A stretch of DNA of 4,794 nt from a virus. Lineage: Duplodnaviria > Heunggongvirae > Uroviricota > Caudoviricetes. A model generated the notes under the pieces. That model worked only from the letters and a program-made list of their open reading frames with translations. It made no database searches and had not been told where the DNA came from. The first letter of the stretch is position 1. Each line of letters opens with the position of its first letter. Positions 1 through 3,556 of the stretch are shown piece by piece. The position numbers and the translations under genes are program-made. The stretch spans positions 1 through 4,794 of IMG/VR virus record IMGVR_UViG_2671180609_000016; one strand, 5' to 3'.

Positions 1-2640
1 GTCCTTCTGCACGCGCTGTATCTGCTGAATGGTGGCGCTCTGGTCTTCCAGCGTTTTACTGACCGTCTGTGTGATTTCATTGCGGGTTTCTGTGATGGTG
101 GTCTGCATTTCCGCCATCTCGTCCTTCAGCTGACTGTTGTCAATCTCTGCCCACAGCGCCTCTGCCAGATGCGTTTTTCCTATCTTTTCCCGGAAAAGTT
201 CCAGATAGCCCGCAGCATCATTGCTCGCCCGTCCACTGGCTTCCACAAACGCAGATTTACCCACCAGGTTGACGCTGCGCACATAAAACCAGAAATCCTT
301 TCCGGGCTTAATGTGCGGACCGGAGACACTCCACTGACTGCCGGTCCCCAGATAACGGGCAGAGGTTTCCACCTGTGCGGCGTCTGCAATTTTTGCCTCC
401 GAAAACCAGAACTCAAACTGCACCGTCGGGTCATAAATGGTCAGTTTCGGGACTGCCGTTATCTGAAAATACCCCGGCGTCAGTTCAACACCGGCAGGCG
501 CTGCCGGTGCGTTAATCCGGAACGTGGTGGTGGCGGGTTCGCCCTGCTGGCCATAGCTGTTAATCGCCCTGACCGTCAGGGTGTATTCCCCGAGAGGCAG
601 GCCACTGAAACGGTGCTCCGTATCGGCAGTGATGGCGGTGGTCACCAGACGGCTGTCTTCTCCGCTTCCGCTGGTCAGGCGCAGACTGAAGCGCACACCC
701 TTCACCACCCGCGGCGTGTCCCATTTCGCCTGTGCCAGATACTGACCGTCAGCCGCGCTCACCTCCACTGTCAGGTGCTGCACTGCCGGTGGAATAACGC
801 TGTTCAGGGTGCCTGACTGCGGCTCAAAGCTGGCCCCGTTATCCACGATGGCTTCTTTTTCCGGTACGTGCTGCACCGCCGTGATGGCAAAGGTGCCGTC
901 CGTGTTTTCCCGGACGGAGACACAGCGGAACAGGCGACGACGCAGTGACGGCAGGGAGAGTCCCCATACACCGTATGTCTCCACGCCATCAGGCAGGGTG
1001 CTGACCTGTATCCGGTCCGGCGCGGGGTGTGCAGTGATGGCCACGCTCACCGGCTTACCGCTGCCGTTAATCAGGTTCACCGTGGCGGCACCGGTCTCCG
1101 GCAGGGTCACCTCACGGTCCAGTGTCAGGGTGCGGCTGGCGGCATCGATGGACAGGATACGTCCGCCGGTCATGGTCCCGGCATAGTCGTTATCACAGAT
1201 TTCAATAATGTCACCGGGTGTGTGACGCAGCCCCTGTGACCCGAGCGTGAAATCCACCGTCTGCGTTTCCAGCAGTCCGGTCTTTATCACCCACAGCCCG
1301 GCACGGTGGGCCTGACCGCGACTGGTGCAGCCGAACGCATCCATCTTCAGCAGGTTGCGTCCGTAGCGCAGTATGGCTTCCGGGTCTTCCACCAGTTCCG
1401 TGGAGGTCTGCCAGCCGTTCTGCGGGTCGGTGTAATTCACCTCCACCGCCGTGTGGCGGTCCTTCAGGGCGCTGAAGCTGTAGCGAAACCCCACGCCGTT
1501 ATCATCCACCACCACATCACTGCTGGTGTACGGCCACACCACATCTGACGGACGGTCCTGCACAAACGTCAGCGTCTGCCCGTTCCATACCGGCATACAG
1601 CGCATCGCCGAGCAGAAATCACTGAGAACGTCCCACGCCTTACGCTGTTGTGACAGGTACGCATTGAAAGTCATCCGCGGCTCTGTGCCCCCGAAACCAT
1701 CCGGGACCGTCTGGTCGCAGTACTGCGCAATGGCATACAGCGCCCACTTGTCCACATCCGCCGCCCCCAGGCGTTTTCCCATGCCGTAGCGCGGGTGAGT
1801 CAGCATGTCCCACAGGCACCAGGCCGGGTTGTTGCTGTATGCCGGTTTCAGGCTGCCGTCCCAGATACCACTGTACGTGCGTTTTTCCGGGTCATAGTTT
1901 GACGGTACCTGGATGATGCGACCGCGGATATGGTAGTTCACCGTCATCTGCTGACCGCCAAACTGCTCCGCATCCACCTGCAGCCCCACAATCGCCGTGT
2001 TCGGGTAGCACTGTTTCACATCGATGATTTCGGTGTATGACGACCAGAGCGTCTTATTCTGCAGCTGGTCCGTGGTGCTGTCCGCCGTCTCCCTGACCAT
2101 CCGGATGTTAAAGGGGCGGGGAGGCAGATTATCCAGAATCACCGACGCCAGAAACTGCGAGGTGGTCTTGCCGTTAATGGTGACATCCTTTTCCGTCATC
2201 CATTTACCACCACGCTCAAGCTGAATCAGCAGGCGGACAGACGTCGGGTTACGGTCACCCTTTGAGGTGGTCTCCACCAGTGACTGCACCCCGAAGGTGA
2301 CCCGCAGGCGGTCAATGTTCGCGGACGTAATGGTGCGCGTCACCGGCTTTGCCTTCGTCACTTCCACGCCCAGTCCGGTTTCAGCTCCGGAGGACTCAAA
2401 GCCTTCAGGTGGTGTCTGCTCCTGCTCCCCGGCGCGCCAGACCGCTGTCACACCATGTATCACAGGATTACCGTCCGTGTCCGTCAGCGGGGTTTTGTTC
2501 ACCAGGATACTCTGCAGCCCCTTCACCGGACCTTCAATCGGCCCTTCACCAATCGCATCAATCACGCTCATCATCTGCGTGGACTTAAGATTGTCCTTTG
2601 CCTCAACCGGCGTGTGCGCCCTGCCGCCACCTTTGCCCAT
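1..2640 (-). CDS. J: Host specificity protein J (central tail fibre / tail tip protein), N-terminal 880 codons; the 3' end runs off the window at position 1
   Basis: ATG at 2640..2638 on the minus strand. Hand translation of 2401..2640 gives [80 protein letters not shown], closely matching the lambda gpJ N-terminus as I recall it. I also hand-translated 2161..2400 and 1..540 in the same frame with no stop (e.g. [50 protein letters not shown]). The track lists no stop-terminated minus-strand ORF in this frame, consistent with one open frame reaching the window edge. SD-like AAGGGTGAG sits 4-12 nt upstream of the ATG. Confidence 0.95.
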
Positions 2641-2671: not shown

Positions 2672-2704
2672 CACAAAAACAACAGGCATCCCGGAGGATG
2701 CCTG
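2672..2704 (-). terminator. Intrinsic-terminator-like hairpin plus U-tract in the same orientation as the tail genes, ending about 30 nt upstream of the J start codon
   Basis: Minus-strand reading: CAGGCATCC-TCCG-GGATGCCTG (9-bp perfect stem, 4-nt loop; plus-strand 2683..2704) followed directly by TTGTTTTTGTG (plus-strand 2672..2682). Confidence 0.5.
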
Positions 2705-2838
2705 TATCATGACTGAATAAAAATTCTGAATATCTTCACATTTTCTGTACGCCCCCGTGGCAGATATCATTCCCGGGCGTTACAGTTTTTTCGGGCCAAT
2801 AAAAACAAAACTCCCTGTGGTTAATCTTCATTTTCTGT

Positions 2839-2876
2839 TCCCGCAGCCTTCGGTCACTGCGGGATTTTTTCGCTTT
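2839..2876 (+). terminator. Intrinsic-terminator-like hairpin plus T-tract in plus-strand orientation, abutting the stop codon of I
   Basis: Plus strand: tCCCGCAG-ccttcggtca-CTGCGGGa (8-bp stem 2839..2846 / 2857..2864, 10-nt loop) followed by TTTTTTcgcTTTT (2865..2877). On the minus strand the hairpin is followed by acagaaaatg, so it reads as unidirectional. Confidence 0.45.
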
Positions 2877-3556
2877 TATGCCTGCCGCCCGATAACCACC
2901 ACCTTCCCGTCACCGCCTTCATCACGGGTGCTGATGTCCTGGGAGATTCGCCGGGAGCCAACCAGCATTTCACCGTAAGGCACCGGCATCGGGTTCCCCT
3001 GGGCAATCATGTTATCCAGTGAGGAAAAATACGTGTTCTGTCTGCCGTTATCCGTTGCGCGGTAATCCGGTGTTTTTGCCTTCGGGGCAAGCATCTGAGC
3101 CACACCACCCAGTATCATGCTGGCCCCCAGTGAAAACAGCATCGTGGTGGCAGAAAAACCACCGGCTGCCAGGGCTGAACCCCATAACGCCATTGATGCC
3201 CCGGCAGTGAAGAACGACCCCACGATGGCCGCCGCCCCCAGCACAATCTGCAGTCCGCCCTTTCCGGCTCCGGCCAGTCGCGGCACAATATGGATGACCG
3301 CCCCCTCACCCAGAGGTTCGTGAAGACGGGCGTACACCGCCTCCGGTGCCGTGTCCTCACCGCGAATACGTATCTGGTACCAGCCTTCGTTCATCTGACG
3401 GCGGAATCCCGGCACCTGTAACGACAGCGCCCGGATGGCCTCCGCTGCCGTGTTCACATACAGGCTGAGGCGGCGGCCAAATCGTTGCAAATCCCCGTGA
3501 AGGCAGATGCGTGCCAGTGGCGGTGACGCCAGACAGAATGCGTTCGTCGTTGCCAT
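2876..3556 (-). CDS. I: Tail tip assembly protein I (226 aa): ubiquitin-like N-terminal domain ending in Gly-Gly, then a Gly/Ala-rich hydrophobic segment
   Basis: Track ORF 2876..3556 (-). N-terminus MATTNAFCLASPPLARICLHGDLQRFGRR matches lambda gpI (MAATHTLPLASPGMARICLYGDLQRFGRR as I recall it). Stop TAA at 2878..2876 verified by hand. Start ATG at 3556..3554; SD-like GGGAGAGG at 3575..3568. Confidence 0.93.
   Translation of the reverse strand: MATTNAFCLASPPLARICLHGDLQRFGRRLSLYVNTAAEAIRALSLQVPGFRRQMNEGWYQIRIRGEDTAPEAVYARLHEPLGEGAVIHIVPRLAGAGKGGLQIVLGAAAIVGSFFTAGASMALWGSALAAGGFSATTMLFSLGASMILGGVAQMLAPKAKTPDYRATDNGRQNTYFSSLDNMIAQGNPMPVPYGEMLVGSRRISQDISTRDEGGDGKVVVIGRQA

Follow-up and report, generated by a model that had tools for sequence, protein, structure and literature searches.

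The I–J spacer and its terminator

The analysed stretch of DNA, hereafter the window, comprises 4,794 nucleotides of a lambdoid (Stx-phage-type) prophage and carries the tail genes L, K, I and J, all annotated on the minus strand. The stretch is 99.7–100% identical in many STEC genomes, and its gene annotation is identical in E. coli O26:H11 11368. A non-coding spacer separates I from J and has a small RNA (sRNA) candidate on the opposite strand, and no upstream antisense gene was found within the window. The main features of the locus are the following:

1–2640, minus strand: 5′ part of the tail tip gene J (ATG at 2640–2638)
2641–2875: non-coding I–J spacer of 235 nt, with the sRNA candidate on the plus strand
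2672–2705, minus strand: J-proximal hairpin, ACAGGCATCC-TCCG-GGATGCCTGT (10 bp) and then TGTTTTTGTG; best terminator-like match of the scan
2840–2877, plus strand: intrinsic terminator (stem, 10-nt loop, A, T6, CGC, T4), reaching the I stop codon
2876–3457, minus strand: tail assembly gene I (stop codon 2876–2878), annotated in O26:H11 11368
4768–4208, minus strand: tail gene L, from the annotation

The terminator is built on a 7-bp stem, in which CCCGCAG (2840–2846) pairs with CTGCGGG (2857–2863), followed by an A and TTTTTT (2865–2870). The region's centroid fold contains this hairpin alone, at −14 kcal/mol. Read on the minus strand, the hairpin is followed by AACAGAAAAUG and lacks a U-run, and therefore the terminator would act on plus-strand transcription only. 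An earlier note on this DNA had described a plus-strand terminator adjoining the I stop and oriented against every gene. The stem and the T-run from 2865 are both present as it described, and the annotation of L, K, I and J confirms the opposite orientation. Across 26 distinct alleles, the 7-bp stem was paired in 98.9% of cells, with variation in both the sequence and the length of the loop. Since the stem is kept in these alleles despite the changing loop, the terminator stands above chance. Furthermore, RNAalifold analysis of the alleles revealed no conserved structure besides the terminator. No covariation was observed in the stem, which is invariant among the alleles; as it never varies, covariation is uninformative either way. 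A simple terminator scan with a loop limit of 8 reported only a small overlapping hairpin at 2859–2873 and overlooked the 2840–2863 stem because its 10-nt loop exceeds this limit. Damaged alleles were also encountered, one with a truncated stem (L059) and another with a stem mutation (L084).

The J-proximal hairpin is located about 35 nt ahead of the J start codon and is terminator-like on the strand of the tail operon. It was paired in 95.3% of cells across 17 alleles, and one pair switches between CG and UA; this is the single covarying pair, and 21 of 500 shuffles were equally good. In some recombinant alleles the hairpin is broken. It may stop non-antiterminated sense transcription before J. 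Inspection by eye for a minus-strand promoter that could give a sense-strand sRNA ending at this hairpin yielded no convincing site. Two loci (L016 and L064) are longer by 14 nt immediately before J, where the heptamer TGTCTGA is repeated in tandem two additional times.

Relationship to PasB and EcOnc22–24

An sRNA from the same slot is known from EPEC O127:H6 E2348/69, which carries a different allele at its I–J locus. PasB (pathogenicity-associated sRNA B) is an 83-nt RNA of prophage PP6, encoded on the minus strand of NC_011601.1 at 1466343→1466261 (Pearl Mizrahi et al. 2021, PMC8550237, Table S6). It is flanked by I (E2348C_1436, ending at 1466255) and J (E2348C_1437, starting at 1466496), both on the plus strand, with the 3′ end of PasB 6 nt from the I stop. 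Northern blotting confirmed its size and Hfq dependence (PMC8550237), and the published probe is the reverse complement of the terminator 3′ half found in the window. In the same study, pasB showed baseMean values of 482–1082 versus 5–15 for I and J, and its log2 fold changes in the delta-hfq strain were −6.8 and −2.4, equivalent to a 110-fold and a 5-fold drop. Additionally, PasB had 37 RIL-seq partners and appeared nearly always as the second RNA in chimeras (PMC8550237). The RIL-seq study presents target motifs for PasA, PasD1 and PasD2 only and reports none for PasB; its entries for E2348C_1436 and E2348C_1437 comprise the two CDS and the PasB row, with no further spacer RNA.

In O157 Sakai, three further RNAs correspond to this locus. 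EcOnc22, EcOnc23 and EcOnc24 were reported from prophages Sp15, Sp14 and Sp11 (Tree et al. 2014, PMC4104026, Table S2), with Hfq-CRAC peaks on the plus strand and the tail genes on the minus strand. Northern blotting of EcOnc22 showed a band of ~85 nt, and EcOnc22–24 were destabilised in the delta-hfq strain (PMC4104026). The coordinates of Tree et al. are ~137–140 nt lower than those of NC_002695.2 between 1.27 and 2.92 Mb. We calibrated this offset on AsxR, Esr41, EcOnc03, AgvB1 and STnc100 (whose 3′ end matches EcOnc27), and EcOnc42 was consistent with it, while EcOnc51/PasA could not settle the matter, as either a short or a long form could apply there. After correction, the CRAC peaks in Sp15, Sp14 and Sp11 start within ~2 nt of the 5′ end aligned with PasB and run into the terminator. 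Taken uncorrected onto NC_002695.2, the peaks fall on the plus strand of the J-proximal hairpin and thus on the wrong feature, a placement that the calibration overruled. No CRAC peak was reported for the other Sakai copies in Sp4, Sp10 and Sp12 (PMC4104026), and for this reason not every allele is necessarily expressed. The searched papers contain no link between PasB and EcOnc22–24: the PasB row of Table S6 has no EHEC homologue (PMC8550237), and the term “EcOnc” is absent from the text of Zhu, Shabalina and Storz 2026 (bioRxiv 10.64898/2026.05.13.724894).

The relationship of the window to these RNAs was assessed using 83 loci with a close I gene, which yielded 44 distinct I–J spacers. A covariance model was built from 14 alleles of other classes, with the allele class of the window excluded. 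In the window, this model returned a single full-length match at 2788–2876 on the plus strand (58.6 bits, E 3.3e-10). Across the 83 loci with a close I gene, it found one match per locus, antisense and at the I stop codon, in every case, and it gave zero matches in loci with distant I genes. Homology was detected in this way although, over the mature region, the window allele shares no more than 65% identity with PasB and 63% with the Sakai allele. As in PasB and the Sakai copies, the element of the window is placed in the I–J spacer opposite both genes and ends in the CCCGCAG/CTGCGGG terminator with U6–7, within ~10 nt of the I stop. Common to the alleles are the upstream region, an A-rich tract with CUCC behind it, AAUCUUCAU and the terminator stem.

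Compared with PasB, the window shares the antisense orientation in the I–J slot, the terminator stem and U-run next to the I stop, the A-rich tract, CUCC, AAUCUUCAU, the upstream block and the −10-like hexamers, with a length of 80 nt versus 83 nt for PasB; the 5′ third and the terminator loop are different. EcOnc22–24 likewise agree with the window in locus, terminator stem and seed-like stretch and in the strand they occupy with respect to I and J, but differ in overall sequence and in reading ACTCTT at the −10 position proposed in the earlier note. The window allele itself is absent from Sakai. It has no 28-nt exact match to PasB, and consequently the published PasB survey, which used a BLAST word size of 28 and reported low diversity and mostly single copies, would have passed over it. 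Of 5426 complete E. coli genomes, 464 contain the window allele at an identity of at least 90%, often in several copies (1551 places altogether), and it carries no RNA annotation across these 464 genomes. Strains with this allele include O26:H11 11368, with 99.7% identity over 2600–2920, and O157:H7 PV15-279. The earlier note had also suggested an Rfam search. We ran it over the whole spacer (2641–2875), and it returned zero matches in Rfam 15, even at E values up to 10, because the PasB / EcOnc22–24 family is absent from that release.

Taken together, the plus-strand terminator most likely ends an ~80-nt sRNA gene of the PasB / EcOnc22–24 family. The proposal of a short, non-coding RNA transcribed from the plus strand against the tail operon is thus borne out by the homologues, as the same locus gives an sRNA in both EPEC and O157 Sakai. 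The locus is already known, and the allele class of the window has not been described before.

Other prophage-borne sRNAs were also considered. AgvB, AsxR and STnc100 (RF02702, RF02703 and RF02076) resemble the window sRNA in being short and carried by lambdoid prophages, in combining a conserved 3′ part with a variable 5′ part and in having an A-R-N tract; Hfq binding would be a further common property, predicted for the window from its sequence. In contrast to the window family, AgvB/AsxR and their convergent partner STnc100 are encoded close to the lysis genes, downstream of PR′ (the late promoter), and not in the tail region. Rfam detects them at their own loci and not in the window spacer. 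The Rfam-curated prophage sRNAs (AgvB, AsxR, STnc100, Esr41 and others) were unmatched in the window spacer and in the Sakai I–J spacers. AgvB or another anti-sRNA had been suspected from the CA-rich segment at 2672–2684, and this candidate was rejected, since such loci lie downstream of PR′ and no Rfam match was obtained.

Predicted extent of the sRNA and candidate promoters

The features assigned to the predicted sRNA and its upstream region, all on the plus strand, are listed below:

2705–2745: A/T-rich block, nearly invariant across 31 alleles, upstream of P1 and P2
2709–2736: promoter pair of the earlier note, −35 ATGACT (2709–2714) and −10 TATCTT (2731–2736), 16-nt spacer
2765–2770: candidate −10 TATCAT of P1, with a weak −35 TTTTCT (2741–2746) and an 18-nt spacer
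2781–2786: candidate −10 TACAGT of P2, with −35 GTGGCA (2757–2762) and an 18-nt spacer
~2792–2871: predicted mature PasB-family sRNA, ~80 nt, placed by aligning PasB (83 nt) and the Sakai alleles and by the covariance model
2798–2809: AAT AAA AAC AAA, four A-R-N triplets whose A positions are invariant across alleles
2821–2831: candidate seed TTAATCTTCAT, which lies shortly before the terminator and is the best conserved of the single-stranded stretches

The 5′ end of the sRNA was placed at 2792–2797 by homology to the reported 5′ end of PasB, a position good to about ±5 nt, and a precursor starting near 2777 is possible. This differs from the transcript of about 125 nt anticipated in the earlier note: the homologues measure 83–85 nt, the promoter proposed there would give ~129 nt, and homology moves the start ~50 nt farther downstream. 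Within the predicted RNA, the distal face of Hfq may contact the A-R-N tract, and Hfq binding would also fit the U-rich stretch, hairpin and U-tail at 2831–2870. For PasB, a seed has been proposed at the position equivalent to 2821–2831 (Zhu et al. 2026, bioRxiv 10.64898/2026.05.13.724894).

The absence of an ORF from the proposed transcript was also upheld, in the sense that the spacer holds no conserved one. The 31-aa and 41-aa ORFs on the minus strand and the 73-aa ORF on the plus strand are not conserved; the 31-aa ORF (2831–2736), which is not hydrophobic, loses its ATG in alleles reading CTTCGT or CTTTGT. A type I toxin–antitoxin pair was therefore rejected, as there is no conserved small hydrophobic ORF opposite the sRNA.

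Three plus-strand promoter candidates were compared, and all of them score equally at 8/12. A consensus promoter scan of the window reported no promoter-like site, the total of 8/12 for ATGACT/TATCTT being below its threshold. The hexamers of that pair and their 16-nt spacing are present as the earlier note stated; their standing as a promoter, however, is unsupported. At the stringency of the earlier note, 19 sites were found in the window, 3 of them in the spacer versus 2.6 ± 1.6 in shuffled sequences, and the match is thus no better than chance. Moreover, the −10 position (2731–2736) reads TATCTT in 21 of the 31 alleles, TTTCTT in 7 and ACTCTT in 3. The last group includes the expressed Sakai copies, in which the hexamer matches the −10 consensus at only 2/6.

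The P1 hexamer reads TATCAT, AATAAT, TATAAT or GATAAT and matches at no fewer than five of six positions, always with A2 and T6, in 31 of 31 alleles. It is kept despite flanks that differ between allele classes. Its predicted start near 2777 would produce an RNA ~15 nt longer than that reported for PasB. P2 has a predicted start near 2792–2793, which fits the reported PasB 5′ end; T1, A2 and T6 of its hexamer are kept in the alleles without a gap at this position (one reads TACAG-), and the other alleles match at only 3/6. The P2 position lies at −12 to −7 from the PasB 5′ end as published, where E2348/69 has the hexamer TAGTGT. Judging from these sequence features, the sRNA may start either from P1, with 5′ trimming, or from P2.

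The A/T-rich block at 2705–2745 is more conserved than the 5′ part of the sRNA itself. It contains TTCACA (2735–2740) and a direct repeat of CTGAATA (2713–2719 and 2726–2732). This block may represent the upstream part of the sRNA promoter, either as an UP-like element or as a regulator site.

Spacer variants, alternative explanations and significance

The I–J spacer is a cargo slot. Spacers of 848–852 nt carry sodC (Cu/Zn superoxide dismutase) antisense to the tail genes (L014 877–1727 and comparable loci; Sakai L110 16488–17338 in Sp4, ECs_1120; Sakai L108 15485–16335 in Sp10, ECs_1989). They consist of the gene, its own GC-rich hairpin and a PasB-like tail, with common sequence only from about GTTAATG onwards. 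These sodC morons therefore resemble the window in their antisense position in the I–J slot and in the PasB-like tail and terminator downstream, but they include a protein gene with its own hairpin, the spacer upstream of GTTAATG is unrelated, and the window has no sodC. In such spacers, the sRNA might be made from the sodC 3′ region. In a second group, with spacers of 336–343 nt (L022 2083–2424; L094 1130–1465; Sakai Sp12, L109 13304–13644), the J-proximal hairpin module is replaced and the sRNA and the 2705–2745 block are kept together. The replacement module includes a hairpin, CCCCGGTATC...GATACCGGGG, with T-runs on both sides.

Several loci outside these groups were also noted. Contigs labelled as Streptomyces flavalbus (L094), Parendozoicomonas haliclonae (L096) and a Clostridiales MAG (L103) encode a gene I with 92–100% protein identity together with the PasB-family element; these short contigs are most likely assembly contamination with E. 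coli prophage sequence. Distant relatives of I and J were found in Enterobacter wuhouensis and Pseudocitrobacter faecalis (L100 and L101, region ~2040–2700) and in Escherichia ruysiae (L097). Their I–J junctions contain a lipoprotein-like sense-strand ORF of ~180 aa or only ~55 nt, without a PasB-like element. The I–J junction thus seems to be a general insertion slot. In Sakai Sp9 (L107 9541–9616), a weaker PasB-family match (62.7 bits) lies beside J at a place where K and I are unannotated and J is preceded by a gene for a short “minor tail protein”, which suggests that this element outlived a deletion of tail genes.

We consider it likely that the I–J spacer of the window carries a stand-alone sRNA gene of the PasB / EcOnc22–24 family, antisense to the tail operon. 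The window allele would then behave like its homologues, for which an RNA of 83–85 nt is made from the I–J locus in lysogens with the neighbouring tail genes silent. The stability of that RNA depends on Hfq, it crosslinks to the protein, and 37 partner RNAs occur in chimeras with it. Transcription of the window allele would start from a sigma70-type promoter within the spacer, with its −10 at 2765–2770 or 2781–2786; if the former is used, the first ~15 nt would be trimmed off. The RNA would end at the terminator (2840–2870), giving a product of ~80 nt that is predicted to be unstructured apart from the terminator hairpin. The A-R-N tract, together with the U-rich stretch, hairpin and U-tail, would hold Hfq. 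The RNA would most likely act in trans by base-pairing with host or prophage mRNAs through the conserved UUAAUCUUCAU (2821–2831), possibly assisted by the allele-specific 5′ part. The terminator would additionally keep sRNA transcription from entering I, K and L. A terminator that merely blocks antisense transcription into these genes, the other reading given in the earlier note, is not needed, since the locus yields an sRNA in homologues.

Among the alternatives, generation of the RNA by 3′-end processing of a longer antisense transcript, beginning in or near J or corresponding to the sodC mRNA, is unlikely. It would account for the sodC spacers, where the PasB-like tail is kept only from GTTAATG on and the P1 hexamer is missing, and a U-run, potentially an RNase E site, precedes the reported 5′ end. 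However, the consistent retention of the P1 −10 in all 31 short-spacer alleles and the lack of an upstream antisense gene in the window argue for local initiation. Slightly less probable still is a role in cis, in which the RNA would pair with the I–J spacer of the late mRNA after induction and alter J processing or expression, or would itself be sponged, freeing its trans targets. The geometry is perfectly antisense, the element keeps its place beside the I stop in all 83 loci, and a sense-strand hairpin and a conserved block lie just ahead of J. Against this, PasB is made when the tail genes are not expressed and has its 37 trans partners on Hfq, and the same sRNA tail also occurs downstream of sodC, in different sequence surroundings.

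It is equally improbable that the allele class of the window is a silent relic, untranscribed, with motifs kept by descent and recombination and a hairpin that acts as an insulator for I, K and L. The damaged alleles L059 and L084, and the Sp4, Sp10 and Sp12 copies in Sakai, which belong to other classes and have no reported Hfq peak, are in line with such decay, but the window allele shows no damage, retaining the complete stem, the T-run, the conserved seed stretch and the two −10 candidates, and its presence in 464 genomes, often in several copies, argues against it. The version of the earlier note, a transcript of ~125–130 nt running from near 2743 to the same terminator under the control of ATGACT/TATCTT, is the least probable of all. 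The pair lies in a strongly conserved block and TATCTT is the majority reading among the alleles; nevertheless, the homologues of 83 nt and ~85 nt are too short for this start, the key A at position 2 of the −10 is lost in the ACTCTT of the expressed Sakai alleles and in the TTTCTT of 7 others, and the match itself is at chance level.

The stand-alone sRNA gene favoured here reveals no new mechanism, being a feature of an ordinary, already explained kind. Its value lies in annotation: an alignment ready for a covariance model is obtained for a family missing from Rfam, and an unannotated gap of 235 nt in hundreds of STEC/EPEC genomes becomes a named, testable sRNA locus. We also suggest two corrections to the literature, namely that PasB of EPEC and EcOnc22–24 of EHEC are one family, and that the low diversity reported for PasB may reflect the BLAST word size of 28, as at least four allele classes exist. 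In a broader sense, and as a tentative proposal that we regard as possible rather than probable, the I–J junction of E. coli lambdoid prophages would be home to a multi-allelic sRNA family, often present in multiple copies and in at least four sequence classes, of which PasB is one allele. This family would unite PasB with EcOnc22–24, would form the 3′ tails of prophage sodC cassettes and may be titrated or act in cis on induction. The allele classes could have different target sets, because their 5′ parts differ and the terminator and core motif are common to them, and titration or cis action on induction is possible because the sRNA is antisense to the late mRNA.
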